Origin: Candidatus Bathyarchaeia archaeon | Lineage (GTDB): Archaea; Thermoproteota; Bathyarchaeia; TCS64 | Assembly (NCBI GenBank): GCA_050014495.1 | Contig: JBEKDF010000008.1 | Location: 25,587-89,586, forward strand | Length of the DNA stretch: 64,000 bases | Direction: 5' to 3' | Shown: positions 5,972-62,258 of the stretch, piece after piece | How positions within the stretch are numbered: the first letter of the stretch is position 1 | How the letters are laid out: every line of letters begins with the position of its first letter | Made by a program: the position numbers and the translations under genes | Notes under the pieces: generated by a model | What the model was told of the DNA's origin: nothing | The model's database searches: none | Seen by the model: only the letters and a program-made list of their open reading frames with translations

Positions 5972-6033
5972 ATAATTGGTTCATTCTTCGTCTATATTTA
6001 CCATTCGCACGCGCGAATAAGCTAGATTAGAAG

Positions 6034-6552
6034 TTATATTTTGTATAAATTAAATATTCCATAAACACTTAGAGCTAATCCTATTAAAAAAATAATAAGC
6101 ATAGCTTGATTAATTGTTACTTCTAACAGTTGATCTACTCCCCCCATAAAACCAATTAGGATCAGAATTAGCCCGACTGAACTGCTTAGCATACTTCTAT
6201 AGATTATCTCAGAATTCTCACTTTTCAATATAAACTTCCATCCAAGTTGTTTTTGTCTAAGCAGCAAATTTGTAAACGATGTTTGCATAGCTGGTTCCTC
6301 ATTTAGAGGTGAAATTGATGATGTTGATACTGCCCCATATAATATAAGAGATAACCCGGCTAATATCGACAAAGCCATACCAATTAAATACTCTAAGGCT
6401 TGATTGTAGTATTGCTGTAGCAGAGGATTTATTGCACCACCTAATTGTCCGATTGTAAAGGTTACTTGTTGATAATTTGGGAAGTAAATTATTAACCCCA
6501 TTACCCCGATGAGGACCAGAGTTAAGCCACCAAGCAATCCATCGCTTCTCAT
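6034..6552 (-). CDS. Hypothetical membrane protein
   Basis: About four hydrophobic segments; visibly AT-rich. Confidence 0.6.
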   Translation of the reverse strand: MRSDGLLGGLTLVLIGVMGLIIYFPNYQQVTFTIGQLGGAINPLLQQYYNQALEYLIGMALSILAGLSLILYGAVSTSSISPLNEEPAMQTSFTNLLLRQKQLGWKFILKSENSEIIYRSMLSSSVGLILILIGFMGGVDQLLEVTINQAMLIIFLIGLALSVYGIFNLYKI

Positions 6553-6692
6553 TGGGTAAGAATTGATTAAGATTAGAAATAAGTTTATTCGTGACTTGTT
6601 TCATTAAAGAACAATCGAATATTTATAAAAAATAAAGTAATTTGGGTCGGGTACATATGAAATGAATTCTATTTGAAACTTAGATTAAGAGG

Positions 6693-6719
6693 AAATCCGT
6701 CTCGCGTAGAGGCGGATTT
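6693..6719. terminator. Hairpin at the 3' end of the wHTH gene
   Basis: AAATCCGTCTC-GCGTA-GAGGCGGATTT, 11-bp stem with one imperfect pair. Confidence 0.4.
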
Positions 6720-7090
6720 TATCCAATTTCTTTTATTGCATCCTTTGTCTCTTTGGGGAAATTCTCCATTAGACTATTGATCATTTTTTGCACTATGTAT
6801 GTCCTGAATCCTGCTTCATCCATTTCAGGATAATAGACCCAATGATGACCACCTTTCCCCGTTTCTTCCTCACCCTTAAGGACTCCCCTCTCTCGCTGCG
6901 CCTCGAGGAAATTAATGACGCTGGCTCGGCTTATGGTTTCACCCTCCATCGCCTGGTTTACCTTTGTCCAAGCAATTCTGCTATTCACACCCTTAGGGCT
7001 ATTCCATACGACCTGCATCACCTTGAGTTGCCAGTTTCTTAGCACGGCATTGAAGCCCACTTGGTCAGTTTCGTATTCGATTCCTTTCAT
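6719..7090 (-). CDS. Winged-helix regulator (BlaI/MecI/CopY-like)
   Basis: QLKVMQVVW, ISRASVINFLE..RERGVL, GKGGHHWVYYP. Confidence 0.75.
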   Translation of the reverse strand: MKGIEYETDQVGFNAVLRNWQLKVMQVVWNSPKGVNSRIAWTKVNQAMEGETISRASVINFLEAQRERGVLKGEEETGKGGHHWVYYPEMDEAGFRTYIVQKMINSLMENFPKETKDAIKEIG

Positions 7091-7290
7091 TCCATTCAGG
7101 CGTGTCCTCTTCTATCTTTTAACTTTTTTTCCAAATTTCATCATAATATTGTGACTTTTCAAAGAATTAGTCTTTATTTCTAGAGAAGAAGTGAATGAAC
7201 TCATTTACACACACTTGGGTCAAGCGCTCTCGCGCGCTATGATTGTAAGAGCCCGCGCGCGCCTCGATATGTGGACACGCTGTATGAGGC

Positions 7291-9390
7291 TTAAGAGGGA
7301 CGAGAAACGGCTAGGTAGTCCTCGAGGCGGCTCTCCCTGACACCTCGTTCCTTCAGCGTATCTTCAATTAGGAAGGGGCTTAGGAGACTCATCACAGTCC
7401 TTCTGGCCACCTCGACGTACTTCTTGCGATCGTACATCCCATCAGCGTCTCCTAACATGAAGGAGGGCTTAACTCGGAGGAAGGGGTTACTGCTCTCCGA
7501 GTTCACGTAGATGTAACGGGAATTCCCCTCCTCCTCGGCTCCTAATAGGGCCGCGACGACATGAGCCTGTAGGCTGCGGTATTGGGTTAGCTCCCGTAAG
7601 AGTCTCTTGGAGATCACTAACTCACTCGCGTCCACCCGACCGCGGCGCAGGTCTTCGAAGGACCTGTTTGCGATGGCGAGGGCCCGTGATAGGCCGCTCC
7701 TCAAGACGCCCTCGGAGTCGTCGGCGTCGAAGAGGGTCACCATGACTCGCTCCTGTAGGCGGTTCATGTAAGGTGGTGTGTCGTGTTTGCGGAGCTCTAT
7801 CCCGCGATAGAAGAGGCTGCCATCGGTGAGCTTGCCGTAGTACCTGTTTGAGGCGCCTTGGAGGGGGTCGGTGGTCTTGCCGAGGAGGACGAGGAACCTG
7901 AAGTGTTTGTCGAGTTTGATGGGGAGTCCAGCGGCTTCAGCGATCTCTGATGCGAGCTCCTCGTAGTCAGCCTCTGTGGCGTCTCGTTTCTTGGTATATA
8001 GGGCGTCGGTGTTGCCGTAGACGATCTCGAACCCCCTGGCTAGGGCGATGTTGAGGGCCTTGACGAGGGCTTGCCGGGCCTGCCTATTTATCTCCTGAAA
8101 GACCTGGACGTTAGCGAACCTGTTGGCGTAGCAGCCGCTGTAACCATAGATGACGACTAGCATGAGTTTGAGGCTCGCCTGTCTCTGCTCGCACCAGGTC
8201 CACTCTTTGAAGCTAGGTTGGAGCAGTTTCCTCATGTGTTTGAATCTGAATCGGCGCTCGAGGGTTGGGCCGGTGAATTGGCCCATGAAGCCGGGTCGGG
8301 TCTGGTCGACGCCGTCCTCGGTGACGGTCTCGTAGCTCACGTTGTATCGGCTGATTATGCTGGGAAACATGGATTCGAAGTCGATGCAGCCGACGTTCTC
8401 GTGTAGGCCGACCAGGGGGGTGAAGAGCATGCCTCCCCTGTCGCGCTTCACCATATCCCAGGCGTTCATTGAGGAGACGTAGCCGCCTTTCATCTCGGGG
8501 ACTAGTACCTTCTGCCGGTGGGCCTCGTAGCATTGGCGGCTGTCGATGGTTTTCCCCGCCTCCCAGTCACTGCTCACTCCCATGGGAGCGAGGGTAAATA
8601 GGGAGCGTTCCTGGAGACCAGCAAGACCCATGTCAGTCCAGCTGTGGTAGCCAAGGATTATCCGACCGTGTGTGAGCTCATGTTCTCTGCCGAAGCCTAG
8701 ACTGAGGCCGTGCTGGGTAGCCTTCTGAATGACCCAACGTATCGAGTTGGTGTCGTCGAGGACTACGACGTCGGGGTCCTCACTCTCGAGTAGATTTTTC
8801 AGCTCCGTGAGGACGGATTCCTCGGTTCCCCTGAGGCTACTCAGGGGCATTTCGTCGGCGTCGTAGACGTCGACGGGGGTGATCGCTCCGGCGTCTGGGA
8901 GTTTTATTAGCATCGTCTTAAATGGGGGTGGTTCAACCCCATCGTCTTTGAGGGCTCTGATGCTCTTCAGGGTCCCGTTCTGTGTCTCGAACTCGCAGAG
9001 ACCGGTCGGTGCCACACCCCTCTCTATGAGGTACCACTGTATGGGGGATAGGCCGATGTCGAAGACCTCCTTAACTTCGCGGAGGCTCCTCGCATACGCG
9101 ATGACTTTGTCGAGGGACTGGGCGGAGTCGACCCTGACCTCCGCTACGGGCTCTAGTCGCTCCATGGAAAGTGAGGCGTATCTCTCGACGGGTTCGGCGG
9201 AGTGAACCATCTTATGCTCCTCGAGCCGGTAACAGAGGTCCTCGATGGCGAGACCGGGGGTTGGTTGGGCTACGAATCGGGGGCGGTGCCTCTCGGTGAG
9301 GTGTAGTGTCTCGCCTTCGACTGTTTTGAACCAGAGGTGGGCGTCTTTTCCCCGGATGTATGGGTCAAGCAGCCAGCCTCTGTGGGTCAA
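7291..9390 (-). CDS. polB2: Family B DNA polymerase, PolB2 (Dpo2-type)
   Basis: DFESMFPSII (motif A), KLMLVVIYGYSG (B), YGNTDAL (C), NRYYG, RGIELRKHDTP; degenerate exonuclease region. Confidence 0.9.
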   Translation of the reverse strand: MTHRGWLLDPYIRGKDAHLWFKTVEGETLHLTERHRPRFVAQPTPGLAIEDLCYRLEEHKMVHSAEPVERYASLSMERLEPVAEVRVDSAQSLDKVIAYARSLREVKEVFDIGLSPIQWYLIERGVAPTGLCEFETQNGTLKSIRALKDDGVEPPPFKTMLIKLPDAGAITPVDVYDADEMPLSSLRGTEESVLTELKNLLESEDPDVVVLDDTNSIRWVIQKATQHGLSLGFGREHELTHGRIILGYHSWTDMGLAGLQERSLFTLAPMGVSSDWEAGKTIDSRQCYEAHRQKVLVPEMKGGYVSSMNAWDMVKRDRGGMLFTPLVGLHENVGCIDFESMFPSIISRYNVSYETVTEDGVDQTRPGFMGQFTGPTLERRFRFKHMRKLLQPSFKEWTWCEQRQASLKLMLVVIYGYSGCYANRFANVQVFQEINRQARQALVKALNIALARGFEIVYGNTDALYTKKRDATEADYEELASEIAEAAGLPIKLDKHFRFLVLLGKTTDPLQGASNRYYGKLTDGSLFYRGIELRKHDTPPYMNRLQERVMVTLFDADDSEGVLRSGLSRALAIANRSFEDLRRGRVDASELVISKRLLRELTQYRSLQAHVVAALLGAEEEGNSRYIYVNSESSNPFLRVKPSFMLGDADGMYDRKKYVEVARRTVMSLLSPFLIEDTLKERGVRESRLEDYLAVSRPS

Positions 9391-9396
9391 GGCTCT

Positions 9397-10425
9397 TCAC
9401 TTCTGTTCGAGTCGGTTGAGGCGCCTCTCGATCTCGACTAGGTGAGTGCTGAGCTCCTCGGAGACTCGGCGGTCGTCTACGAGGCCGGTGAGGAGAATGA
9501 GGTCCATGAGGCTTAGGGACTCGGCGTAGCTTATGGCGCCGAGTTCGGCGCTCCACGCCTCGACTAGTCTGTCAAATGCCTCTCTCCTGCCCTGTTTGAC
9601 GAGGGCTTCCCGGTACTCGCTTCGGAGCCTCGCTAGGAGGTCTTCGAAGCTCATCCTTATGGGTGGCGTTGTTCTCCCCATGGTTGATTCATCCTCGTAT
9701 GTGTACTCCTTCGCGCGCTGGGTGGTGAGGGGTGACTTGAGAACGTAGGCGCGGTTGTAGATTGCCCCTCTCTCCCTTTTTCGGAGGTAGATGATGACGC
9801 CGGCGATGTGGTCGAGGTAGCTGCTCGCCTCGGGGACGGGGACAGGGCCGCTGTGGCTCTCCCTGGCGGAGGCGACGAGTGGGACCCCGGCCTCGGCGCA
9901 GATCCTCTTCATGGAGGCTATACTGCGCTGGACCTCCTCGTGTACGCGATCCCTGTTCCTCTTCCGAGCGTCGTCTCTACCGAGCTTGTATATCCCCTTC
10001 ACAAGGACAAGGCGTGTGTTATCACTGGATCTGATGACCCGTTCTAGCTCCGCTGTGAGGTTCGCCTGTTGGTCGGCGGATGAGGCGACTAGGACTCGGA
10101 CCCGTTTCAGGGCGTCCTCCGGCAGCTGGCCGGTGTCCTCGATTAGTTGGATTAGCGGTTCGGTGTCCATTATGATGTGTTCGACGCGGTAGTTGCCGCA
10201 GATGACGTAGACGGCTTCGGGTTTGGGATAATGGTCGGTGGGCTTGAGGCCGTTGGCGAGGAGGTGGGTGAAGAGGGTGTCCGTGAGCTCTTCCTCGCCG
10301 TAGAATAGGTAGAGGGTCTCGGCTTTGATGCCGCCGGTGAGTTCATCGAGCTGTAGACTGCTAGTGGGTATGTTTATTGCTTGTTGGCTGGATGCTAGCC
10401 GCTGGGCGTCGATGAACAGGGTCAT
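9397..10425 (-). CDS. Inactive RadA-like protein fused to PolB2-associated small helical protein (arCOG07300-like)
   Basis: LDELTGGI..ETLYLFYG with no GKT; C-terminal MGRTTPPIR...REAL....REAFDRL; ATG 10425 lies about 30 bp from TTTTAAA. Confidence 0.75.
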   Translation of the reverse strand: MTLFIDAQRLASSQQAINIPTSSLQLDELTGGIKAETLYLFYGEEELTDTLFTHLLANGLKPTDHYPKPEAVYVICGNYRVEHIIMDTEPLIQLIEDTGQLPEDALKRVRVLVASSADQQANLTAELERVIRSSDNTRLVLVKGIYKLGRDDARKRNRDRVHEEVQRSIASMKRICAEAGVPLVASARESHSGPVPVPEASSYLDHIAGVIIYLRKRERGAIYNRAYVLKSPLTTQRAKEYTYEDESTMGRTTPPIRMSFEDLLARLRSEYREALVKQGRREAFDRLVEAWSAELGAISYAESLSLMDLILLTGLVDDRRVSEELSTHLVEIERRLNRLEQK

Positions 10426-10454
10426 GAAGCAAGGAAGCCACACGGACCCGGCGA

Positions 10455-10461: not shown

Positions 10462-10598
10462 CGAACTCACCTCGTGATGGGTGGGGGGTACTCGAAGGTA
10501 GACGATATGGAGCATATCCCTCAGATATGCGTGCGACATGCGCTGTTGGCCTGCGGCAAGGATAGTTAATCCAAGGTTGATTTTACCGTGTGCGCGCA

Positions 10599-10985
10599 CT
10601 ATGCACGTTTTGGCTGGATCATAGCGATTGGGTTTCCCTCTGGGTCTCTGATCGAAGCCGTATATCCGACTCCGGGGACTTCCTGTCTACCCATAATCAC
10701 CTCTCCTCCCAGCTTAACAACATCGATAAGGGCTTTGTCTATGTCTTCAACTGCTACATAGTTGACCGGGATGTTTGCATCACTTTGCTTCTTGTACATG
10801 CCACCGTTTACTCCGGGTCGAGTGAGCATTCCCTTGTCATTGGTTGGAACAGTTTCGATGGTCCAGTACTCCATGAAGTCACTTGGCGTCTTCACTATCT
10901 TCCATCCAAAGAGTTTCTCGTAGAAGGATTTGAGTTTGGTAACATTTTTCGCGGGTATTTCGAAGTGAACTATTGTTTGACTTAT
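10599..10985 (-). CDS. VOC/glyoxalase family protein, apparent ATA start
   Basis: Frame extends upstream of 10895 as (I)SQTIVHFEIPA...FYEKLFGW; GVNGGM, YVAVEDID, DPEGN. Confidence 0.85.
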   Translation of the reverse strand: MSQTIVHFEIPAKNVTKLKSFYEKLFGWKIVKTPSDFMEYWTIETVPTNDKGMLTRPGVNGGMYKKQSDANIPVNYVAVEDIDKALIDVVKLGGEVIMGRQEVPGVGYTASIRDPEGNPIAMIQPKRA

Positions 10986-15136: not shown

Positions 15137-15148
15137 GGAAGGAGCGCG

Positions 15149-15227
15149 CGACGTGATCACCATTAACAGATCGGATATTCAGAAAATAATTTAATTGTCT
15201 CAAATATTCAGGATTATCGCCATAACT
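15149..15227 (+). repeat. 79-bp imperfect direct repeat, copy 2
   Basis: Matches 13968-14046; begins inside GCGCGCG at 15144-15150. Confidence 0.85.
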
Positions 15228-15280: not shown

Positions 15281-17329
15281 TCATTCGCTTCCCAGTGATT
15301 TTAGGGCATCCTTAACATCAGTCATCGGTAGGCTACAAACTCGATTTCTGCATATGTAGATGGCGGGCTTACCATTAATGCCCTGCATTGCTGCGGTATA
15401 GTCTAGGAGTGAATCGAGGCGAGGCGTTTTAAGCATGAGGAACTCGTGGGGGATATATGATCCTTGTAGAGTACCGATAATTTTAGACGTATCCGCCTGG
15501 TTTTGACCCCCTGCTATTACAACCTCATAGCTTGGCCCGATTTTGTAGTCGAGAGCGCATAAGAGAAATGTAAATGAAGTCGGGTTGGCTTCAACGAGGG
15601 GGGCAACTGCATTTAGAAGCTTCTCCGCTTTCTCCTCGAGACCCCCCTCGAGGATTCTACCGAGGCGTAAAAAATTCAGTGCCATCACTGAGTTACCCGA
15701 AGGTTTTGCTCCGTCGTGTGTATCCTTAACTCTCGGTAGTGAGCCCTCGGATGAGCGGCTCAAATAAAAGCCACCGAGATCGGGATCCCAGAATAGTTTG
15801 ACTGTATCTTCGGTTAGATGATTAGCCTCTTGCAAATATTTTACGTCGAAGGTTGCTTCGTATAGCTCTATGAGTCCCCATACGAGGTAGGCGTAGTCGT
15901 CAAGAAAGGCTGGGATCGCTGCTTCTTTTTGTCTATAGCGGTGGAGGAGTGTGTTATCATTCATCTTCGTTAGGATGAAGTTTGTGGCGTCCTCGGCTGC
16001 CTTCACGTAGTTCCTCTCACCAACTACTGCTCCAGCCTTCGAGAGTGCAGCTATCATTAAGCCATTCCAATCGGTCAAGATCTTATCGTCGAGGAAGGGT
16101 CGGACTCTTTTGCTTCTCGCTTCGAGTAATTTGCATCGAATCGACATTAACCTCTTTTTAAAAGAGTCTAAATCGAGTCCGAGTTCAGCTGAGAGAATTT
16201 CATCTGAGGATGTTCGGTGTAAAACGTTAGCACCAGGTCCTTCTTTGCTGTTGCCTGCCTCAGACACGCCATAGATGTGGGCAGCGATCGCTGCCTCTTC
16301 TTCACCCAATTCCTCTTTAAGCTCTCCTAAGGTCCATGTATAGAATTTTCCCTCTACTCCTTCGCTGTCTGCATCCTCGGCTGAGTAGAATGCCCCTTCG
16401 GGAGAGGTCAGGTACCTCATTGTATAATCTGCGATGTCTCGAGCCGTAATTGCGTAATTTGGGTCATGGGTGGCTTGGTATGCCTCGGTGTAGGCGAGTA
16501 GGAGTGTTGCCTGGTCGTAGAGCATCTTCTCGAAGTGTGGGATTAGCCACAGGTTATCTGTGGAGTAGCGGTGAAAGCCACCTCCGATTTGGTCGTGGAT
16601 TCCACCCCTCATCATCGCGTCGAGGGTGGCTTTGACCATGCCAAGTGAGTGAGGGTTATTTGTTCTTCGCCAGTATCTTAACAGGTATAATATGTTGTGA
16701 GGTGAGGGAAATTTCGGGGCGACCCCGAAGCCATAGTGCTGGTTGTCGTATTGTGAATCAAGTTGATTGTATGCGTCATCAAGTGTATTATTGTCTATGA
16801 TCGATTTTTCTGTGATTTGGGGTATCTGTGATAGAGCGTCTACTATTGATGTTGCGTCTGAGACTATCTTGAATCGATCGCTTGTCCAGAGTTGGCGGAC
16901 TCGAGGAATAAGGTCCATTAAGCCGAGCATGCCGTCGTGGCTCGTCTTTGGTAGGTAGGTTCCGGCCCAGAATGGCTCCTTCTCGGGGGTCATTATGATA
17001 GTTAGAGGCCAGCCTCCTCCGCCAGTTAGGATCTGACATGCGGTCATGTATGTAGCATCGAGGTCTGGCCGCTCCTCTCTGTCGACTTTAACGCATACGA
17101 AAGCGGTGTTGAGGGCGTGTGCCGCATCCTCGTCCTCGAAACTTTCTCGCTCCATTACATGGCACCAGTGACAGGTTGAGTAGCCTATGCTTAGGAAGAC
17201 TGGGATTTCGCGTTTCCGTGCCTCCATAAAGGCCTCTTCTCCCCATGGGTGCCAGTCAACAGGATTATGTGCGTGCTGCTGGAGGTATGGGCTCTTCTCA
17301 TGGATTAGGCGGTTGGGACTCTTGGCCAT
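15281..17329 (-). CDS. YyaL/SPATA20-family thioredoxin-domain protein
   Basis: [44 protein letters not shown]. Confidence 0.95.
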
Positions 17330-17547
17330 TGCTTGAGTTTCCCCTGTTTGATTTTTGCTTCGCCGTTATTAGCTGATTTGCTAGGGAGTTAACAGTGAAT
17401 GCGGTATATCGTATTAATTATTAGCTACAGAGAAGTCAGGATGAAATTTTACGATCCTACTCGTTGATCTTGGTACTAGTTTTTAATGTGGTCTCCTAGT
17501 TGTACACGCGTAGTAAACCCAAAGGCTTTCTCAAACCTAGAGCTTAA

Positions 17548-18375
17548 TTGTATTATCATATGAACATAGTTAATCTCCCAGAAACGGTCACCGAATTAAC
17601 TCATCTCAGCGCATTCGAGCGCTTCGCAGATGGCCGACCGAGGGTACCAGACGATCTGATTGAGAGAATGAGGCTTGTTACGACCGAGGAGGCGTGGGGA
17701 GTGTTGCACGCGAAAGGATACGAGAATCAATTCGAGGGTAACTGGATCTGCACAAACCCCGATCGAATTCTCGTGGGCAGGGCGGTTACTGCATGGATGG
17801 TTCCCAGCAGACCCGACTTAAACGAGACAATTGAGAGAATCGGGAAAGCGGAGGGTAGGATAGGTGGCCAGAATTCGTGGGTCATAGATACTCTGCGTAA
17901 GGGTGATGTGATGGTCGTTGACTGCTTTGGTAAGATAAAGGAGGGGACCTTCATCGGAGACAATCTCGCAACCTCCCTTATTTCGAAGACGGGGGCAGGT
18001 GCCGTGATTGACGGGGGGATCCGCGACTATCAAGGGGTGTCAAAGCTTGAAGATGTCACAATTTTCTGCCGTGGATTGCACCCAACAGCCATCGCCGACA
18101 TGACGTTGGTAGGTGTCAACACACCGATCCGCATAGGGGGCGCTACCGTATTGCCGGGGGATGTCGTCCTCGGCACAGCAACAGGCGTGATCTTCATTCC
18201 CCCGCATATGGCGAAGGAGGTCGTTGAGAGATCCGAGGATATTCGCATGCATGATCAATTTGGCAAGCTGAGACTAAGTGAGGGACGATACACCTCGGGA
18301 GAGATTGACCGAGCCTGGACGTCGCAGATTGAGGAAGATTACAAAGATTGGTTGAGGAAACTCAGGGGGAATTAA
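17548..18375 (+). CDS. RraA/HMG-aldolase family protein
   Basis: GRAVT, IGDNLA, GAVIDGGIRD, IGGATVLPGDVVLG...GVIFIP. Confidence 0.88.
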   Translation: MYYHMNIVNLPETVTELTHLSAFERFADGRPRVPDDLIERMRLVTTEEAWGVLHAKGYENQFEGNWICTNPDRILVGRAVTAWMVPSRPDLNETIERIGKAEGRIGGQNSWVIDTLRKGDVMVVDCFGKIKEGTFIGDNLATSLISKTGAGAVIDGGIRDYQGVSKLEDVTIFCRGLHPTAIADMTLVGVNTPIRIGGATVLPGDVVLGTATGVIFIPPHMAKEVVERSEDIRMHDQFGKLRLSEGRYTSGEIDRAWTSQIEEDYKDWLRKLRGN

Positions 18376-18379
18376 GGGA

Positions 18380-19375
18380 ATGGTTAAGATGAGATTCTCC
18401 GAGATTTTTGGTGACTGCTACTCCACCAGAAGCCTGAGACTCTTGAAGCAGCTCGGATGCACCGATGTGATCGGTCATGGACCAGTTGATGGTGGCGAGG
18501 TTTGGGAGTATAAGGATCTAATTGAGTTGAAGAGCCGGGTCGAAGGTTTCGGTCTGAGGCTGGATGTGTTTGAGGATGGGCCGAAGATCGACAAGATCAT
18601 GTTGGGGCTTCCGGGTCGGGATGAGCAGCTTGAGAATTTCTGTAAGTCCCTAGAGAACCTGGGTAGAGCCGGAATCGGGACAATAAAGCCTCAGCATATG
18701 CCACCGGGTTGGGAAGAGGTCATGACGGTATCCAATTCACCGACTAGGGGAGGTGCAGAGTCGAGAGTCTTCGACTATAAGCTAGTTGAAAACTTGCCTC
18801 CTACAGAGTTTGGGATTGTGAGCGAGGAGCAGGCCTGGGACAACCTCAGTTATTTCTTGGAGGGTGTTTTGCCCACAGCTGAGGATGCGGGGGTCCGAGT
18901 TTCCCTCCACCCAGATGACCCTCCAATTTCGCCGATACGGGGCTTCGCAAGGATCCTACGGAGCGTTAAGGCCTTCGATCGTATGCTCGAAATTTACCCC
19001 AGTGAGAATATAGGGCTACTCTTCTGCCAGGGCTGCTTTGCTGAGATGGGTGTAGATGTACCGGCGACGATCCGCCACTTTGGAAGGAGGAAAAAAATCT
19101 TTTTCGCCCACTTCAGGGATGTCTTTGGGAGTGTGCCCAAGTTCCAGGAGAGCTTTCACGGGGAGGGTCCGACTGATATGTTCGAGGCAACGAAGGCTTA
19201 CTATGATGTTGGGTTTGAGGGTCCGATTAGGCCAGATCACGCCCCGAAGATGGAGGGAGATGAGCTATTCACTGATGGTAAGCCGGGCTACTACCTACTA
19301 GGTAAGATCTTCGCCCTAGGCTACATGAGAGGCCTCGCGGAGAGCATCGAAAAAACACACACAAACATTGCTTAA
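18380..19375 (+). CDS. uxuA: Mannonate dehydratase family
   Basis: HPDDPP, FCQG, HFRDV, RPDHAP, LGYMRGL. Confidence 0.9.
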   Translation: MVKMRFSEIFGDCYSTRSLRLLKQLGCTDVIGHGPVDGGEVWEYKDLIELKSRVEGFGLRLDVFEDGPKIDKIMLGLPGRDEQLENFCKSLENLGRAGIGTIKPQHMPPGWEEVMTVSNSPTRGGAESRVFDYKLVENLPPTEFGIVSEEQAWDNLSYFLEGVLPTAEDAGVRVSLHPDDPPISPIRGFARILRSVKAFDRMLEIYPSENIGLLFCQGCFAEMGVDVPATIRHFGRRKKIFFAHFRDVFGSVPKFQESFHGEGPTDMFEATKAYYDVGFEGPIRPDHAPKMEGDELFTDGKPGYYLLGKIFALGYMRGLAESIEKTHTNIA

Positions 19376-19480
19376 GATAATCTTTAAGAAAAATGGATAT
19401 GTTACAATTTTAAACCGCGCGAGAGCCAATCGCTAGACCTCAGATGGATATGGTGCACGATCAACTATTTTCTTATATAA

Positions 19481-19870
19481 GTGGACACTCCATCAGTGTC
19501 CGATATGGCTCAAGATCAACCTCTCCTCCTAGTGGAGAATAATGAAAAAGAGGCTAGCCTGTTGAAAACTGTGTTGGAAGGCGAGGGGTTCAGCGTCGAC
19601 ACCGCTTACAGTGGCTGGGCTGCTGTTGAGAAGATCAAGGATAAGAAATACGCTACAGCCATCGTGGATTTCGCGCTGCCCGATATGAAGGGAGATGAGT
19701 TAGCTGAGAGATTCAGGATGGAGGACCCTAAGATGGGTATAATTCTATTAACGGGTTTCAAGCCGATGATTGATCCTAGTAGATTGAGGGGTTTCGATTA
19801 CATATTTGAAAAACCTGTTAGCCCAAAGAATATTCTCGATGCCTTGAAACTAGCACGTATTCCTAAATGA
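19481..19870 (+). CDS. Stand-alone response regulator receiver
   Basis: LLLVEN, IVDFALPDMKG, LLTG, FEKP. Confidence 0.88.
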   Translation: MDTPSVSDMAQDQPLLLVENNEKEASLLKTVLEGEGFSVDTAYSGWAAVEKIKDKKYATAIVDFALPDMKGDELAERFRMEDPKMGIILLTGFKPMIDPSRLRGFDYIFEKPVSPKNILDALKLARIPK

Positions 19871-20088
19871 GACTCTCGCCTTAGAACCTAAATTCTAGAA
19901 TCTCCTTTGTAAGTGCTCTACGATTAGATTTCCTTTCAATCTATGCACATGCAATCTATGTGGTAGATTTGGATAGCTCGTGCGTTTCTACTTTGAGGTC
20001 TGAGGTGGCACAGTTCCTATAGCCATCATTCGCGCGCGCGTCTATACACACAAACAAAATAACAAAAAGGGCTAATGGGCTGTCGATA

Positions 20089-20754
20089 TTATACGAGTTT
20101 GTTTCCACACTCGCCGCAGAACTTTGTCCCAGCTGCATTTTGCGCCCCGCATCTGGGACACTTAAGCAGGCTTAGTGGTGCTCCGCAATTATTACAGAAT
20201 TTTCCTTCGCCCGCTGGCTTACCGCATTGTGGGCATATTGTTTGTCTTTTATTGATCTCGCCTGTAAAGACCTGGGTGGTATCGGCCTTACTCTTTATGT
20301 CTTCGACCATCTTCGCTGATCTGGCTGCGGCGACTTCGATGTTTTCGCGTGGGGCATCATCTGTGCAGAGGCCGACCTGCTCGTTCCAATCATTCTCACA
20401 CACATATTTGTGACATTTTGGGCATCTCTGGAAGTGTCCCTTTGCCTCATTCTGGGCTACACCAAAAGCTTCCTCATGCTCCTTATGCCACTCGGGTGTC
20501 ATTCCTTGGAACCTCTCACTGAGTATATCGGAGCTCTGATTCATCGTATTTCCGACACTGTAGTGACCGGTCAAGTCTGCACCTATCGATGCTACTTTCC
20601 CGACATTTCTCCAGAATCCAGCCTTTTTATACGTCTTGGATGCTATAAACTCCGTCTTATAGCCATCGTTGCAGATGTCACAGTGGAATGTGAATTGAAA
20701 ACCAGCATCTGTGCTGTTATCATCAAAATTCCTGGTGAACGGTTGAAGTGGCAT
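20089..20754 (-). CDS. Zinc-ribbon (double zinc ribbon) protein
   Basis: GFQFTFHCDIC, several CxxC pairs, KFCNNCG, KFCGECG; ATG 20754 preferred. Confidence 0.85.
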   Translation of the reverse strand: MPLQPFTRNFDDNSTDAGFQFTFHCDICNDGYKTEFIASKTYKKAGFWRNVGKVASIGADLTGHYSVGNTMNQSSDILSERFQGMTPEWHKEHEEAFGVAQNEAKGHFQRCPKCHKYVCENDWNEQVGLCTDDAPRENIEVAAARSAKMVEDIKSKADTTQVFTGEINKRQTICPQCGKPAGEGKFCNNCGAPLSLLKCPRCGAQNAAGTKFCGECGNKLV

Positions 20755-20759
20755 TTTTC

Positions 20760-21098
20760 TTACCTCAATGAGTTCAACGGCTTCCCGCACTTAATACATT
20801 TTTCACTAATCGGGGGCTGTTCGGTTCGGCATTTCTTATTCGGGCAAATTATGGTCAACCTTTCCCCACAGTTTTTACAATAATCCCCGAAGAATGTAGT
20901 TTTTTTGCAGTAGGGGCAGTTGACCTCGAGTAATTGACCGCAGCTACTGCAGCTCTTCTGCCCTTCTTCGATAGGGTTCTTACATTTTGGGCATCGCAGA
21001 GGTCCCACAGGATTAACTTTTCCACAGAATGGACACACGTTGTCATCGGCTGACACGAGCTTACCGCAGTACCGACACGGATGCTTGTATCCAGGCAA
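20760..21098 (-). CDS. Tandem zinc-ribbon protein
   Basis: Eight Cys pairs (seven CxxC, one CxxxxC) in 112 aa; AGGAGTGAGG SD. Confidence 0.85.
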   Translation of the reverse strand: MPGYKHPCRYCGKLVSADDNVCPFCGKVNPVGPLRCPKCKNPIEEGQKSCSSCGQLLEVNCPYCKKTTFFGDYCKNCGERLTIICPNKKCRTEQPPISEKCIKCGKPLNSLR

Positions 21099-21210
21099 CT
21101 AATCCTCACTCCTACCTTGTTGTTTTATTACACATTTAACGATTTGAACTTAAAGATTGGTAATTGTTCAATAGAATTTTGAAAACCCTCGAACGCGCGA
21201 TCATTTAATA

Positions 21211-22539
21211 TCATTCAGCTTTCTTCGCGTATCTAGCGTCGTCATTCTTCTCTTCTGTATTGAATCTAAGTAACGCAGTCACATCGCTCTTCCATTGATC
21301 CATGTTATAATGTATGACTCGCCCTATGAAGAGATCTCTGAGCTTCTGGAGGCTAGGAATCTCTTGAACCGCAAACTTATAGTGGATGTACTTTGGATCG
21401 CTCAACTGTTCATCCGTTAGGTAGATTGGTTCTCTCCTGAAGTTGATCTCGATCATGCATCTGTTGAGCATCTTCAGGAAAACGTCGTATTCGCTGTTCA
21501 GTTTTGAGAGATCTTTTTTAGTCGCATAATCTCCACGACTTAGTATTCGAAAGAAGTATGTGGCCCTGCCTTCGTCGACGCCGGTTGTAGCCTCGAGGGC
21601 GACCGCGTTGCCGGGCACTGAAGGGTCTTCGCTGTAAATTGGGATGAGGAACCATACATAATCCTCGACTTCGCTCTGTGTGAGGCTGCGCTTCACTCCA
21701 AGACTGATCTTGTCGTTGCGTGATAGTTCCTTTAGGAAATCATATGATTCGCTTAGACCCATTGCTCTGGCCTTTAATTCGAGTTGGGCCCAGAACTCGG
21801 GTGTAACTTTATCTATCTCGGCCTTCTCCGCAGCTCTGCCTTCTTTCAGTAGATCTGCAAGTCTTCTCTTCTTAATTGTGTCAATTTGTGGTTGTATTTC
21901 CCCGATTATCTTCTGGGTTCTCGTCGTAAGTTCGTTAATGGCTTCGGATAGGCTTCGTCTCAGATAGTCACGTTTCTCACCCATCTGAGTGAATGTTAGT
22001 CTCTCCTCTGACTCGGTTTCGACTATAAATGAATAGTCCTCCACTCTTGCATCATAGATGTAGCAGTAGGGCACCCTCAGGGGTTTATGTTTCCGTGGCA
22101 ATATGAGCAAAGCGGAGTCATAAAGACGCACCTCGCAGAGGTCATTAAACACGTCTTGACCCTTGGAGGCGTAAGTTAAATTTGCCTCGATTTGTGCCAC
22201 TCTTAGACCTTCATTCATTAGTAAATATTTTATGAAGAGTTCGTTTTTCATCCGGTATAGGGTTGTTAGGAAGTTCTCGTATTCGTAGCCGATCTGATTT
22301 AGAGTCACCATATGATTTGATGATAGAATCAGTTTGATGATGTAATTCTCATCAGAGATGCCCACGATATCGGTGTAAGCGATTGCAAAGTTCTCTCTAC
22401 TCATCTGCTCAATTATTAGGGATGTGTCGTCAAGAGTTGCTTTGGCTTGACCCCCTGAAACTGCCTTTCCACCCTCATCGCTTAAAGTGTAGGTGACGTC
22501 GCAGCTCATCGCTTCTTTGTTATCTGGGGAATCCTGCAT
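21211..22539 (-). CDS. Hypothetical protein, two PH-like beta modules followed by a helical region
   Basis: Repeated pattern L.D..L.I...IxY..I......Y; C-terminal INFRREPIYL, FIGRVIH. Confidence 0.7.
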   Translation of the reverse strand: MQDSPDNKEAMSCDVTYTLSDEGGKAVSGGQAKATLDDTSLIIEQMSRENFAIAYTDIVGISDENYIIKLILSSNHMVTLNQIGYEYENFLTTLYRMKNELFIKYLLMNEGLRVAQIEANLTYASKGQDVFNDLCEVRLYDSALLILPRKHKPLRVPYCYIYDARVEDYSFIVETESEERLTFTQMGEKRDYLRRSLSEAINELTTRTQKIIGEIQPQIDTIKKRRLADLLKEGRAAEKAEIDKVTPEFWAQLELKARAMGLSESYDFLKELSRNDKISLGVKRSLTQSEVEDYVWFLIPIYSEDPSVPGNAVALEATTGVDEGRATYFFRILSRGDYATKKDLSKLNSEYDVFLKMLNRCMIEINFRREPIYLTDEQLSDPKYIHYKFAVQEIPSLQKLRDLFIGRVIHYNMDQWKSDVTALLRFNTEEKNDDARYAKKAE

Positions 22540-25367: not shown

Positions 25368-25396
25368 ATATTTTCCATTCACATATCAGTAAGTGG

Positions 25397-26575: not shown

Positions 26576-26714
26576 TGATACTTGAAGACTCGCACCTATA
26601 AACTCCTAATTGAAGCACAGGAGCATTAGCCTTCAGCGTCGAGATCAATGTTACTAATACCTTAAAGTTTGACGAGGGATCCGCGCGTCATCTCATCAAG
26701 TGTGTGGATGATTC

Positions 26715-31392: not shown

Positions 31393-31424
31393 GCGCATGA
31401 TTTAAAGGCGACGCATACGCGCGC

Positions 31425-31562
31425 GAGCTCTGTGAAGGCAAAGGGAGTCGGGAGGAGCATCCTTTATTCAGTAAGCGTACCGTGGAGGCATATAGTGACA
31501 CAATCGATTTCAAATACAAGAAAGAGTCTTGGACGACCTTCATCATAAAGCTGGGCTCGTGA
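31425..31562 (+). pseudogene. Degenerate C-terminal fragment of a histidine kinase HATPase domain
   Basis: ELCEGKGS...KRTVEAYSDTIDFKYKKESWTTFIIKLGS*, resembling KAAEVHGGTIEVESEVGKGTTFKVRL of the kinase at 63135. Confidence 0.45.
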
Positions 31563-33182: not shown

Positions 33183-33247
33183 GTAGCGCAACTAATATTC
33201 GCGCGTTCAACAGAGTAATTAGATAAAAAAACAAGTGTGCATTTTAG

Positions 33248-34225: not shown

Positions 34226-34375
34226 ATATGACGCAGCGTGCAAGAATCCATCATGCCAAAAAGTGTGCGCGCGACTCCTGCTAACTCACTAGCTAAGAAT
34301 CTCATCTGTACTATTTTGATGTGGAAATGGAGAAAGGGATACTCGTATGGGAGAAAATGTAAGGAGATAAATTGC

Positions 34376-36448: not shown

Positions 36449-36550
36449 TTAACAACAGTACCCACACGCGCGCCGTACGCGTTGCAAGCTCGCCTTGTTT
36501 AGAAGATACTAAATATACCTCTTTTTAGGCACCGAGACAATGATTACACG

Positions 36551-48032: not shown

Positions 48033-48186
48033 GGAGCAACGTTACCTTCCCTATGTAGTGATTTAATTGGGTGTTGGTCGTGTATAAAATGGTACACGAA
48101 AAATCGCTGTTTGTATGCGCAAACAACATTTTCCAACTTCGTGCGCACGGCTGTGTCTCTGATAATGATAGTGTCTAGCTCAAGTC

Positions 48187-50141: not shown

Positions 50142-50151
50142 GAAACTACTC

Positions 50152-55600: not shown

Positions 55601-56021
55601 AGAATAACCCTTACCAAATTAAGAGCAAAATGAAGGGTATCAAAATGTTGATTCGCTTATGTAAATATCCGCGAAATTTTTGATTTTTTTTTACTTCAAC
55701 TTTGCATGTAGATGTCCTTAGACGTAAGTAGATATTTCATGAAAGCATCGAGAAGACATTATTATATGAACCAAATTTACATGTTTGTTAATCTTGTCCC
55801 ACGACCTTTTAATAAAGTGCCACTATTATTCATGCGAAACAATCGAGTACACGGTGATTTGCGCGCGAAATATAAGTTAAGATGTTAGCGCTAGGGTGAA
55901 TAAGGAAATAATACAAAATCGGATTAGTCTTATCATTTAATGAGACCACGGACACCACATTACGATGTGGAAAGCCAGTACCTTTTAAGGAAAAGTGGTG
56001 TAGCCTTCTTCAGGTGATTAT

Positions 56022-58425: not shown

Positions 58426-58546
58426 TTCAATCACCTGATATAACAATCGAAGGTTTGTAGATAAAACCTTTCAAGAGAGATTTTTTCATTGCACGAGCTG
58501 TCAAGATAAGGTTATTCTAGCTGTGGATGAATTTCGGGACAGGCCG

Positions 58547-58708
58547 GCGCGCATACTATCGTCCGCCATCAACAGGCGTGACGTGCTTCTCACCGAGGAC
58601 TCACTCATCCACGCCCTGACCACGGATGAGGTCTATGGGAGGCTGGTTGGGGAGATCAACCCCGAGTTCGTGGTCTCATCCCACAAGGCTCTGCCAGGCT
58701 TGATGTGA
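58547..58708 (+). pseudogene. C-terminal fragment of a PIN-domain (VapC-like) protein
   Basis: ILSSAINRRDVLLTEDSLI resembles the PIN C-terminal D..I.A.A....L.T.D..; no N-terminal DTN motif. Confidence 0.4.
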
Positions 58709-58828
58709 AGCATCTAGGCGATGCGAGTGGGACAACTATAGCCAGCACGGCTATGACTTCCTCGGCATAACAGACCATGCGCACTTGCATACGCCTATTA
58801 ATTCATCTCGCGAACGGCGTGTGTTTGT

Positions 58829-59251
58829 GTTAAGTGGATTTGTTAAGCGTGTAAGGTTGATTGGTGACTCTGTTAATGGATGTTAGTGGTGTTAGCGGTG
58901 TTGTCAAGTTTGTTAAGTGTGTAAAGTCGCGGTTTCGGAGATGTGGACATCTCCATAGGCTGGGACGTGTGGGGACGTGGGGTTCGGGGAGTTTAATGAA
59001 ACCTGTTTGACGCATGGGCAGGTCATGTTTTGGCTTAACATGTGTCGTCTAGGGGTCTGCGGGGCTTAACGGGTGGGTTACGAGGTTAACAGGCGGCTTC
59101 TGGGGTTCACAGGTCTCGTCTGTGGTTTACACCGGCTGTGGTGGGTTAACGTTGGCGGTGGTCGCTGCTTGTTGGGTTCACGATGTGGGATTGGTCTTCT
59201 CAGTGGGTGGTTCGGGTTAACGATGGTTTGTTACCTTCTATTTTGCTTAAC
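58829..59251 (+). repeat. G/T-skewed region with phased TGTTAA and GGTTAAC-like motifs
   Basis: GSTTHAC copies at 59033, 59064, 59084, 59104, 59124, 59144, 59175, 59215, 59245. Confidence 0.75.
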
Positions 59252-59307
59252 GGTGATTTTGTCAACGATTATATGGTTGAAGCGTCGAGGTTTTTCTTGA
59301 GCCGTGT

Positions 59308-61155
59308 ATGCCGCCCCTTGATAAGAGCAGAGTGCTTGGGATGCTGTTCAGGGGGTACTCCGCTCGGGAGGTGGCGAAGAAGTTTGGCGTAAGCAACGTC
59401 ACGGTCTCGAAGACGTTGAGGGATTTCGTCTCGGAGGCTGAGGGGGCTAACAGTGTTTTGGCTGCTGCTGAAAAGCATGGGATAGAGGAGCAGGTGAGGC
59501 AACTCATCGCGATCGGTGGGGTGGTGGAGGAGACTAAGGTCGACGCATCTAGGGCGGGTCTGGGGCTTAGAATCGTCAAGGCCGTTGAGGGGTTCGGCGT
59601 GGATCCTGATGGGGTCCCAGGCTTCATCGAGGCTGTGAACAAGGAGGCCTCTGATCAGCACCTCTCGGCGGAGACGTTCGTGAAGGTGGTGAAGGGAATT
59701 CACGGCATGAAGGTCGATGGGATGAGCGACTACGTCGCCTTCGAGAAGTCTGTCGAGGCTAAGCATGGTGAGTTCGAGAGGCTCGATGATCAGGTCTACG
59801 AGTACGAGGGGAAGGCCGAAGCGGCTAAGGCGCAGATGGATGAGGCGGTTAATAAGAAGAACACCACCTTGGAGGAACTCGATGATTATGTCGCCCTCAG
59901 GGACCGCCTGACGCCACATGGCCTCGACCTCCGCGATGTGGATAAGGCGGAGAAATGCCTCCTTAACATCAAGGAGCAGGGTAGTGATCCCGTCGCCGTG
60001 GTCGCAGTTTATTCGCGGGACGCTGAACTCTCGAAAAAGGTTAAGGATATGGAGCTGAGAGTCGGGTATCTGTCGAAGTCGGAGTTAATCGCGGGGAATA
60101 AGCTGAACGAGACGAACAAAGAACTGGAGTCGAAGACGGAGCTAGCTGAAAGGGTTAGGGAGGCGGAGGCCCTAGGTCTCAGGCCTTCCCAACTTGGCTT
60201 ATTTGTTGAGAAGGCCCGTGAGGTGGGGGCTAGACATGGCCTGGGGATGAAGGAGTCGATTAGTCGTCTCGAAGCGGATCTAAGGGAGAACTGGGAGCCG
60301 AAGCTGGGCTTCGAGAATAATAAAACGAAGCTGGTTGCTGAGCTGGATCAGTGGGATGAGAGGGTCGAGCTCGCCGAGGAGAGGGAGAGGGTTATTCTTG
60401 AGAAGGTCAGGGCTCGTGAGGGGTCGTTCAAGGAACTCGAGGAGCTTAGAAAGCATGTGAGTGCGAGTGAGCTCGTCGAGTTCAGGCGCGTCATCGTTGA
60501 CAGTGGACAGAATGTGCCATCGTTCCGAGGTGAGGTTGAGAGGCTAGGGAGCGTAACTGCTGCGGTTGATGCCGCGAGGCTGAGGAAGGAGGCAGATGTC
60601 GCTAAGCTTGAGACCAGGGTAAAGACTCTGGGTGCTCAGGTCGAGCAGCTGAATAATACGAAGACCCAGCTGGAGGCGAAGATCCTCACACTCAATTCGA
60701 ACGCCATCGAGGCCATCACCAAAGCCTCAAACACCATGGAGGATATGGCCAAGGGTTTGAAGGAGGACTTCGAGAACCCTGAAACGGGTTTCAGAGCGAC
60801 GATGCAGACCATAAAGACTTATGCTACGGCGGAGATGAACCAATCAATAGCTGTTCAGCGTGAGAGCTTCGAGCAGAGTATAAGCAAGTTCAAGAAATTC
60901 ATTGAACGTTCCACCGCTGAAGTAAAGCAGCTGAGAAATAGCAGCTGGAACACAGGAGAACTCATCGGCTACAACGTCCACCTTTTAACCCTCGCGAAGA
61001 TCGTAGCCGGCGAACCCGTGGAGAGGATGCAGACGTTAGTAACCATGCAGATGACGGTCAATGCCTTCGCGGATTACCTCGCCAAACTAGACTTGGCTAA
61101 ATACTGTCCAAGCTGTATGAAGTTTATTGATGAGCTTAGAGGCCAGATGGCTTGA
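59308..61155 (+). CDS. N-terminal HTH plus long coiled-coil protein
   Basis: GYSAREVAKKFGVSNVTVSKTL HTH; extensive E/K/L heptads; no Walker A seen. Confidence 0.85.
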   Translation: MPPLDKSRVLGMLFRGYSAREVAKKFGVSNVTVSKTLRDFVSEAEGANSVLAAAEKHGIEEQVRQLIAIGGVVEETKVDASRAGLGLRIVKAVEGFGVDPDGVPGFIEAVNKEASDQHLSAETFVKVVKGIHGMKVDGMSDYVAFEKSVEAKHGEFERLDDQVYEYEGKAEAAKAQMDEAVNKKNTTLEELDDYVALRDRLTPHGLDLRDVDKAEKCLLNIKEQGSDPVAVVAVYSRDAELSKKVKDMELRVGYLSKSELIAGNKLNETNKELESKTELAERVREAEALGLRPSQLGLFVEKAREVGARHGLGMKESISRLEADLRENWEPKLGFENNKTKLVAELDQWDERVELAEERERVILEKVRAREGSFKELEELRKHVSASELVEFRRVIVDSGQNVPSFRGEVERLGSVTAAVDAARLRKEADVAKLETRVKTLGAQVEQLNNTKTQLEAKILTLNSNAIEAITKASNTMEDMAKGLKEDFENPETGFRATMQTIKTYATAEMNQSIAVQRESFEQSISKFKKFIERSTAEVKQLRNSSWNTGELIGYNVHLLTLAKIVAGEPVERMQTLVTMQMTVNAFADYLAKLDLAKYCPSCMKFIDELRGQMA

Positions 61156-61673
61156 CTGAGTATAATCATAGACTTCGAGAGATGATACAGGTCAAGGAGT
61201 CACTGAATTCTATCGCGTCGAAGACCAAAGATGTATTTGATGCCAAGATGAGGGCGACGGTGAAGGGTCTACTCGACGACCACTACGCCCTGGAGGGTCT
61301 TACGGTCGAGGATGCTGAAGGGATGAGGGCTCATATGCGGGTCGTTGAGGTCAGTGGCCAAATCGCAGATAAGTTACTTGGCGTGGATGGGAGCAATTTC
61401 AGGCAAACACACAGGAGCAAGATGGATTGGGATTATGATAGGCCAAGAAGGGTCTTAGAATATGTCAAGAAGATAGCAGACATCATCCCCGCTGAATACC
61501 TCACTAAGCTAATAAGTGATTCTCAAAGACTCACTGCAGAGGAGCTCATAAGTCGCTATGAAGCTGTGAAAGGCGAGGCGAAGCAGAGCGACTACAGCGG
61601 CCAGCCAAGTGGAATCGACCCAAAAGCATTCAGAATCATAGCAAGAATACGTAGGAAACAAGGTAATAATTAG
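61152..61673 (+). CDS. Hypothetical helical protein
   Basis: TTGA start/stop overlap with the upstream gene. Confidence 0.75.
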   Translation: MTEYNHRLREMIQVKESLNSIASKTKDVFDAKMRATVKGLLDDHYALEGLTVEDAEGMRAHMRVVEVSGQIADKLLGVDGSNFRQTHRSKMDWDYDRPRRVLEYVKKIADIIPAEYLTKLISDSQRLTAEELISRYEAVKGEAKQSDYSGQPSGIDPKAFRIIARIRRKQGNN

Positions 61674-61677
61674 GTAG

Positions 61678-61842
61678 ATGCACGAGCAGGCGAGGAGGAC
61701 CCGGTCAATCAGGATCCAGACCTATGTCGAGAAACTCGCCGACATATTCCCCGCCGAGTACCTTACCCACCTGCTGATCACCAGCCAGACCCACAACACC
61801 GAGGAACTCATAAGGATCTATGAGGCCGATAAGGCGCGCGCG
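61678..61842 (+). pseudogene. Truncated paralog of the C-terminal part of the 61152 protein
   Basis: YVEKLADIFPAEYLTHL...EELIRIYEADK versus YVKKIADIIPAEYLTKL...EELISRYEAVK; similarity ends at CGCGCGCG 61835. Confidence 0.55.
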
Positions 61843-61969
61843 ATCAGGCTCATGATTGAGGCTTTGTCCTCCTCGGATACCTCTTTTGAGTTCCTTAACC
61901 GCTCCAACGCTGAAGCTATATCTGGTCGGTCTTGTAGATGTCATCCTTTCTCGTGTCTCCTACACCCAT
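61835..61969 (-). mobile_element. Remnant 5' end of an archaeal tyrosine integrase gene
   Basis: MGVGDTRKDDIYKTDQ /frameshift/ IASALERLRNSKEVSEEDKASIMSLI; starts 35 bp after the tRNA 3' end, same strand. Confidence 0.5.
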
Positions 61970-62003
61970 AAGAAAAATACTTGAGGGAATTGAACTCGGA
62001 GTT

Positions 62004-62082
62004 TGGTGCTCCCGCCGGGATTTGAACCCGGGATCTCGGACTCGAGAGGCCCATATCCTTGACCGGACTAGACGACAGGAGC
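62004..62082 (-). tRNA. tRNA-Glu (anticodon CTC), CCA encoded, no intron
   Basis: GCTCCTG/CGGGAGC acceptor stem, TGGGC-CTCTCGA-GTCCG, CCGGG-TTCAAAT-CCCGG, ACCA. Confidence 0.97.
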
Positions 62083-62107
62083 GCGCCAAATAGTCTAACT
62101 GGACCCC

Positions 62108-62116
62108 AATAAAAAC
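62108..62116 (-). promoter_or_regulatory. TATA box of tRNA-Glu
   Basis: GTTTTTATT 26-34 bp upstream of the tRNA 5' end. Confidence 0.6.
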
Positions 62117-62258
62117 GTTAACCCATTAAAAATTAAAGATCTAGGTGCTGTTCACATGCGTGCTTTCTGCTCCTTCCCCTCTCTCTAACACTATTATATA
62201 AAAAAAGCAAGCGAATTATGAAAAAATAAAGTCTGCCAAGCTATTATCGCGCGCGCAT

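Follow-up and report, generated by a model that had tools for sequence, protein, structure and literature searches.

Alternating C/G tracts at rearrangement junctions in Bathyarchaeia as probable filler DNA of end joining

In eukaryotes, N-nucleotides, filler DNA and telomerase-written interstitial repeats seal a junction with non-parental bases and persist there as a scar, and the fillers of eukaryotic breaks have a random sequence, are copies of DNA nearby or follow an RNA template. Very short, hugely over-represented motifs that are targets of mobile elements are also known, namely HIP1 of cyanobacteria, REP and the DNA-uptake sequences; HIP1 is abundant in coding DNA and is tied to a methylase. 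In Sulfolobus, the primase PriSL performs terminal transfer and anneals ends by 2-4 C:G pairs, at least five pairs being extended poorly (PMC3333859), and it has been implicated in the repair of breaks in vivo, where the insertions are small and biased to G/C (PMC12019639). Purified polymerases, according to PMC13061963, produce self-amplifying repeats template-free in vitro. The tracts described here bear on how archaea without cultured models repair breaks and take up foreign DNA. The present analysis concerns a stretch of 64,000 nucleotides from a Candidatus Bathyarchaeia archaeon (G000:C8:25587-89586, called the window below; the G000 assembly holds 3.1 Mb in 92 contigs) and the short runs of alternating C and G, (CG)n or (GC)n, found in it. 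Since these tracts stand where DNA was rearranged and the parent sequences do not contain them, they are likely filler, and we consider it probable that they are self-complementary DNA written during the end joining of breaks. No account of such tracts in Bathyarchaeia, nor of alternating filler in prokaryotic end joining, was found in the open-access literature; Bathyarchaeia are unmentioned in the main text of a survey of archaeal insertion sequences (IS) (PMC13343696) and of a Z-DNA survey (bioRxiv 10.64898/2025.12.30.697008).

Tracts at rearrangement junctions

Gene order was compared with stretches of four same-genus genomes. A tract was found in 25 of 76 spacers with broken gene order and in 0 of the 36 that keep it (Fisher p = 2e-5), where 'broken' includes genes merely absent from the compared stretch and the conserved spacers are shorter (4.0 kb in total vs 16.9 kb). 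The genome G074 belongs to another family; of the 38 spacers in synteny with it, one carried a tract. A piece of 14 kb, absent from the relative G012 between two genes that are neighbours there, is bracketed by the tracts at 34267 and 48141; the left edge is a (GC)n tract (34267..34273) and the right edge a degenerate one (48140..48149). DNA alignments with relatives run at ~78% identity and are too loose for base-exact breaks.

In a self-comparison of G000, a tract stood no more than 10 bp from 101 of 483 repeat ends, vs 2% for shifted positions. At 102 paralog breakpoint events not involving an IS, (CG)3 was present 26 times (7.7 expected); in 23 of these 26 events the tract was in one copy only, and in only 3 was it in both. 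No such excess was seen for other simple motifs at the same breakpoints, with (AT)3 at 6 (6.7 expected), (CA)3 at 3 (7.0 expected) and (GA)3, GGCCGG and G6 at or below expectation. A sequence-only reading of the window had taken CGCGCG and alternating purine-pyrimidine tracts as marks of most module borders and as junction scars or core sites of a cassette-like process. The scar proposal is supported by the broken spacers, the 14-kb bracket and the paralog breakpoints; only (CG)n and its transition variants give the signal, purine-pyrimidine alternation in general does not.

The tract could be compared with its parents at several kinds of junction. At C33:31598 of G000, an IS copy lacks 455 bp and has (CG)5 instead, and the intact copies are without (CG)5. 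Strains were compared over window 17001-37000 in four independent runs. One contig of run X10 skips 224 bp (19530..19753, forward strand, within the response-regulator open reading frame (ORF) 19481-19870), and GCGCGCGC joins the two sides. At least 255 bases match on each side of this joint, the window has no tract at either break, and GCGCGCGC with the native C and G beside it again makes a 10-bp run. Two-sided paralog cases gave the same picture in 11 of 22, where the tract was in neither parent; among these are deletions, joints between two places that are unrelated, and a cdc48 paralog (C9:85303) in which 7 bases were replaced in place by 7 others. A pure 4-bp duplication was not seen among the 22. 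Among 24 strict one-sided flanks, the overlap with the tract is no longer than 3 bases in 20, and 14 of those have a short G/C microhomology of 1-3 bases (25% expected to share one or more, p = 3e-5). A 908-bp piece of a TBP gene (C51:7553-8460) has a tract at both ends and its paralog has none; pieces with a tract at each end, such as this one, are as expected for captured DNA. Tracts also disrupt genes and IS copies of G000.

The abundance of the tracts is far beyond that given by composition. The spacers of the window (8435 bp, 41% G+C) hold 16 alternating C/G tracts of at least 6 bp, including those at 58547 (beside an IS end) and 62081 (end of tRNA-Glu), whereas 1000 base shuffles averaged 0.93 and never exceeded 4. 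Between the genes of G000, CGCGCG occurs 870 times vs 45 expected and GCGCGC 1032 times vs 47 expected under a first-order Markov model, and these two are the most over-represented intergenic 6-mers, by ~20-fold. The density of CGCGCG in spacers is 16 times that in ORFs. Altogether, 1126 tracts of at least 6 bp were counted in G000, 672 of them between called ORFs, with a density per contig of 0 to 16 per 10 kb. Their lengths stop sharply, with 481, 186, 192, 144 and 111 tracts at 6, 7, 8, 9 and 10 bp, 5 at 11 bp and thereafter 4, 1, 1 and 1; the 10-bp ceiling is common to the GC-start and CG-start registers. Outside the two nearest bases, the flanks are featureless. The single-base variants of the 10-mers in G000 are mainly C-to-T and G-to-A, which reads as decay of the tracts. 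The two nearest bases differ by lineage: the outer bases are AT in G000 and TA in G074, G199, G223 and G231/G197, and the base preceding G-start tracts is T in 60% in G000 and A in 78% in G074 (67-84% over G074 and four other samples). In G074, this outer A is often absent from the parent sequence.

The trait seemed specific to the genus among 31 near relatives, and a survey of the class showed otherwise. Of 261 Bathyarchaeia genomes, 30 were tract-rich (at least 20 (GC)5 plus (CG)5 per genome, counted without G+C control), 19 of them outside the genus, in six families; the surveyed genomes are incomplete assemblies, so that a gene may be present without having been found, and related genomes are not independent observations. 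Sampled stretches of 12 of these genomes have 35-59% G+C, and most show an intergenic excess of short tracts; no excess was seen in the samples of G093 and G262 or in single stretches of G151 and G123. The tract-richness of G003 and G006, with 58-64% G+C in the sampled loci, may be partly chance. In G074, 1.22 Mb (62%) was examined and held 527 tracts, mostly of 8 and 10 bp, with 389 intergenic vs 15 expected.

G074 also carries a second self-complementary repeat, (AGCT)n, as a further probable filler type. Here CTAGCTAG occurs 192 times vs 6 expected, and it was not seen in G000. Of 50 genomes, six had 354, 146, 88, 28, 23 and 15 occurrences of AGCTAGCTAG, and none of the other 44 had more than 6. 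The repeat (AGCT)n also stands at paralog breaks, where the parent is without it at 3 of the 6 flanks listed. The (AGCT)n strings of G074 mix with (GC)n and reach 14-18 bp, and mixed strings (GC|TA)n occur as well; intergenic counts of (AGCT)n were 11 and 6 at 13-14 bp and 1 at 15. The stacking sums at the ceilings, from nearest-neighbour values, are -17.4 kcal/mol for (AGCT)n of 14 bp and -19.9 kcal/mol for (GC)n of 10 bp, so the two ceilings correspond to similar duplex stability. As a side observation, 10-mers of (AGCT)n and (GATC)n are both raised in G087 (family f26), at 23 and 28, hinting at (GATC)n, the reverse of (AGCT)n, as a third filler unit.

Origin of the tracts and candidate enzymes

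These data suggest the following mechanism. A polymerase would add a self-complementary repeat, (GC)n in G000, to both of the broken 3' ends, priming on a terminal G or C, or on one or two untemplated bases, and the ends would then copy each other across the break. Growth would stop near a stacking energy of -18 to -20 kcal/mol, once the duplex no longer melts, and the paired tails would be filled in and ligated. Any two ends could be joined in this way, giving deletions, in-place replacements and the capture of tract-flanked pieces. Purifying selection would remove most scars from genes, where they are usually harmful, and scars would persist mainly between genes, decaying by C-to-T and G-to-A changes and becoming targets of IS5-like and IS110 elements later. 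It is conceivable, although doubtful, that several lineages have a dedicated Ku-independent pathway that writes (GC)n or (AGCT)n linkers on any end, a natural universal cloning system. Such a pathway would capture foreign DNA without homology, explain large mosaic accessory genomes and leave a datable scar per event. The tract would be a sequence-readable signature of end joining in one of the most abundant classes of sediment archaea, and the history of rearrangement and gene gain could be counted from a single genome, each tract being one past break. IS5-like and bridge-RNA IS110 elements would have evolved to target repair scars, and an enzyme able to render any pair of ends compatible would be valuable as a tool. 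The differing filler units and ceilings of the two lineages lead to sharp biochemical predictions.

Several points weigh against filler written in end joining. The 'parents' are paralogs of 82-99% identity and not true ancestors; for 74 of the 102 paralog ends, a true break was no requirement, and a tract stands at only 26. The other 11 of the 22 two-sided cases share the tract or abut an IS end, and ~70 IS ends abut tracts in G000, which keeps an IS origin alive. The X10 event is one contig at a depth of ~5, and the joint is absent from the other three runs. In G074, a paralog was available for only 25 tract flanks, several of them ambiguous, and the lineage-specific base before G-start tracts is equally explained by a fixed template. 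The insertions described in Sulfolobus are of 1-2 bp without alternating runs (PMC12019639). Finally, no residue in PriS (by alignment reading) or in the recovered stretches of PriL (best difference 0.51) separates tract-rich from tract-poor genomes, so that the patchy distribution (30/261) is left unexplained.

An origin as target duplications or excision footprints of CGCG-inserting IS5/IS1182-like elements, together with junctions of IS-driven deletions, is unlikely, although these elements are closely associated with the tracts. By an eye count, GCGC or a near variant follows ~70 IS ends in G000 that belong to two IS5/IS1182-like groups, and CGCG stands on both sides of all 5 complete copies with intact flanks, a sixth copy being split by an IS110 element. 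The two groups match Pfam DDE_Tnp_1 and DUF772, with the IS5 and IS1182 NCBIfam models below cut-off; NCBIfam NF033542 was above cut-off in the analysis of the IS5/IS1182-like and IS110 elements. The duplicated CTAG target of classical IS5 would presumably leave CTAGCTAG likewise, and DDE_Tnp_1 (PF01609) was found in 12 of 20 tract-rich genomes. Yet a duplication copies parent bases, and the parents are mostly without CGCG at the break; as target duplication cannot add bases that the parent lacks, the elements use tracts rather than write them. Otherwise identical IS ends differ in their flanks, which makes the tract the target and not part of the element. PF01609 had no match in 8 of 20 tract-rich genomes (incomplete assemblies), including G074, G123 and G262, and matched in 4 of 10 tract-poor ones; DUF772 had no match in 4 of 5 tract-rich genomes, again incomplete assemblies. 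The G074 assembly consists of contigs joined by N runs, and past IS activity is possible in the genomes without a match; as no 18-mer is common to more than 2 of the 404 contig ends of G074, its tracts do not abut a collapsed IS family. IS5-like and IS110 elements would be later colonists that target tracts afterwards. In two copies (C17:57467-58773 and C48:5783-7089), an IS110 that has CT on either side lies between GCGCGCG-CT and an IS5-like end, and it may be a bridge-RNA element that targets the joint of scar and IS.

It is similarly improbable that a fixed short palindrome serves as the template of the filler or is itself ligated in, whether it be an RNA or an oligonucleotide made by a primase, for instance AT(GC)nAT or TA(GC)nTA, entered by 0-3 paired bases like telomerase insertions at breaks. 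The sharp 10-bp ceiling, the lineage-specific outer bases and the often non-parental outer A of G074 fit such a template, but the ceiling holds in both registers, and the mixed (GC|TA)n and the 14-18 bp (AGCT)n of G074 are unlike one template. No reverse transcriptase (PF00078) was found in G000; a template RNA was not searched for.

The sequence-only reading had proposed a CG-specific recombinase, cutting by a CGCG nuclease or Z-DNA-prone breakage as the cause. All three need a tract or CGCG in the parent DNA and are unsupported, as 20 of 24 strict flanks share only 0-3 bases and 11 of 22 cases have the tract in neither parent. That tracts pre-exist as recombinase core sites, nuclease cut sites or break hot spots is accordingly very unlikely as an origin and is largely refuted. 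It would account for the tract in both copies at 3 of 26 unbiased events and at junctions such as C25:23488/30758, and GCGCGCG-CT is part of an IS110 target; against it, 23 of the 26 events have a single-copy tract, new tracts appear where none stood (X10), and breaks show no excess of (CA)n or (AT)n. No C5 methyltransferase (PF00145) was found in four of four tract-rich genomes (G000, G074, G151, G231), in which N4-cytosine methylases were not searched. A secondary role remains, and tracts also act as occasional recombination points. Selected chromatin, promoter or terminator signals, of which chromatin and termination were an alternative in the sequence-only reading, can be given hardly any weight: the tracts are biased to intergenic DNA and somewhat denser in short convergent spacers and within 40 bp past stop codons, but they occur in 0 of 36 conserved-order spacers and in 1 of 38 syntenic with G074, show no fixed distance to start or stop codons in G000 and interrupt genes and IS copies.

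Which enzyme would write the filler was approached by comparing gene content. PriSL, the replicative primase and, of the candidates examined, the sole one found throughout, is tentatively put forward by analogy with Sulfolobus. PriS was found in 19 of 20 tract-rich and 10 of 10 tract-poor genomes and is hence non-discriminating. Besides the replicative primase, G000 has two extra PriS-like proteins of 439 and 268 amino acids (C20:26047-27366 and C53:7058-7864); the second PriS-like protein (C20) does not match the trait. Comparison of G000 with 62% of G074 left ~600 shared genes, too many to narrow the enzyme without a tract-free genome.

Ku and LigD were rejected as the cause. G000 has a complete operon of LigD-Pol, Ku and ligase/phosphoesterase with a fourth gene (C3:63436-67464; L052:7437-11464), closest solved relative 5DMU. 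Ku is present in very few archaea according to PMC12019639 and was found in 71 of 261 Bathyarchaeia genomes. The link looked convincing in the 31 near relatives, where a Gly in the Pol motif was common to the tract-rich members. Across the class, only 2 of the 19 genomes that are tract-rich and lie outside the genus gave a Ku match, and of the 71 Ku genomes 12 are tract-rich and 59 are not. The Gly was dismissed as determinant after loci with Glu (L125, L128) were also found to have many tracts. At L113 (G017:C159:5468-5965), the start of Ku is fused to the end of the ligase in one 166-codon frame, apparently an operon of non-homologous end joining (NHEJ) lost by internal deletion.

Other candidates fared no better. 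PolX had no match in 9 of 20 tract-rich genomes and matched in 7 of 10 tract-poor ones, and PolY was not found in G000, G074 or G151. The PolB2 of the window has close homologues in the tract-free G001, G010, G022 and G024, and none was found in the tract-bearing G005, G008 and G009. Integration scars of Cas1 or a casposase were rejected as well, with 6 Cas1 matches in G000 and none found in G074, G151 or G199. The G000 matches, on C80, C18, C46, C6, C79 and C24, are in several cases fragments, two of them cut by IS ends near contig ends, and are possibly casposon remains.

The tracts and accessory DNA of the window

All 14 intergenic CGCGCG positions listed from the letters alone are present, as are those inside ORFs at 9712 and 61835. 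These two had been noticed as the only CGCGCG within ORFs; GCGCGC lies inside ORFs also at 3053, 10592 and 58138 in the ORF call of this analysis. The claim that tracts mark most borders stands only if degenerate tracts are counted, as an exact tract of at least 6 bp occurs in just 14 of 38 window spacers of at least 50 bp. The sites at 24011, 28259, 30847, 49224, 52473 and 54169 have cores of 4-5 bp only, each of which, taken singly, could be chance.

From the left, a 6-bp (CG)n tract lies in a spacer at 6010..6015, and tracts of 7 bp (7231..7237) and 9 bp (7254..7262) share the spacer downstream of polB2. Another (CG)n tract is within the RadA-like ORF 9397-10443 (9712..9718), and a degenerate palindromic tract is upstream of the polB2-radA-like pair (10590..10599). 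A convergent spacer holds a 7-bp (GC)n tract at 15144..15150. Spacer tracts of 6 bp follow at 19416..19421, 21194..21199 and 26682..26687, and a full-length 10-bp tract, (CG)5, is at 20031..20040. At the (CG)4 tract 31418..31425, the strain of run X11 has 9 extra bases at the right end, so that a small later deletion abuts this tract. The (CG)n tract at 33200..33205 separates two segments that are ~17 kb apart in G012, and that at 36467..36473 stands at the left end of the glycogen cluster. A (GC)n tract stands upstream of two CdvB-like (ESCRT-III) genes at 55861..55867. The interval 58503..58552 on the forward strand (start approximate) holds the isolated end of an IS5-like element, overlooked in the sequence-only reading, and after it the GCGCGC target at 58547. 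Near the right end, a 9-bp (GC)n tract is within a small ORF (61834..61842), and a 9-bp (CG)n tract is in a spacer beside tRNA-Glu (62248..62256).

In the relatives G009, G011 and G016, the gene of a thiamine pyrophosphate (TPP) enzyme (3355-5106) directly adjoins tRNA-Glu (62004-62082), which marks ~56 kb of the window (5500-62000) as accessory DNA. The lack of tracts in the core cdc48-fen block, already noted from the letters, fits this. A cassette-like process was not supported: no defined cassettes were found, and breaks lie within genes and within IS copies. One 39.6-kb contig of an independent 2025 run is collinear with window 17001-37000 across the tracts, so the tracts are not an assembly artefact. 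Most runs containing window DNA are peat metagenomes, and no RNA data set was listed for the region. Two loci came out of a metagenome scan, of which one was distant and the other nearly identical to the window; neither added a new filler event.

Further features were seen in passing. G012 has a partial second copy of tRNA-Glu, typical of an integration site. Window 24279-25196 is a degenerate repeat with a period of ~156 bp whose structure differs among strains. Beside tRNA-Glu, window 58600-61971 is a GT-rich low-complexity stretch with three ORFs without family (615, 173 and 97 amino acids), the longest with a weak helix-turn-helix, and is perhaps the remnant of an integrated element. Elsewhere in G000, 171 copies of a 21-base motif occur on 49 contigs, none in the window, often ~600 bp apart in tandem; the motif appears to precede a family of genes of ~180 amino acids and is possibly a separate cassette array. 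One tyrosine recombinase lies beside an IS in G000.

Likeness to known systems

The tracts were not shown to belong to any of three described classes, namely Ku-LigD NHEJ, integrons and IS footprints, each of which failed on a defining property. Like Ku-LigD NHEJ, for which G000 has the genes, the tracts join unrelated ends with short microhomology and bases can be added; the difference is that the trait does not co-occur with Ku (2/19 tract-rich genomes outside the genus). Integrons and site-specific cassettes were rejected, as there is no conserved site with arms, the flanks being featureless beyond 2 bases, and breaks fall inside genes. IS5/IS1182-like elements, with 4-bp palindromic targets, and IS110 sit in G000 tracts with CGCG on both sides but cannot write bases absent from the parent. 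Compared with HIP1, the tracts are 16-fold sparser in ORFs, vary in length, show no positional conservation and arise at junctions.

The remaining likeness is to end joining that adds bases, and the tracts appear, by analogy, to work like filler or N-addition end joining. The pathway described in Sulfolobales as pp-MMEJ or PADT by PriSL shares with them an archaeal host, independence of Ku, terminal transfer, few C:G pairs and G/C-biased insertions; as far as the accessible parts of PMC12019639 and PMC3333859 go, it differs in that insertions are mostly of 1-2 bp, with neither an alternating filler of 6-10 bp nor a genome-wide family of scars. In contrast to the eukaryotic fillers, the probable filler of Bathyarchaeia is a repeat that is self-complementary, has a unit differing by lineage and stops at a ceiling in length.

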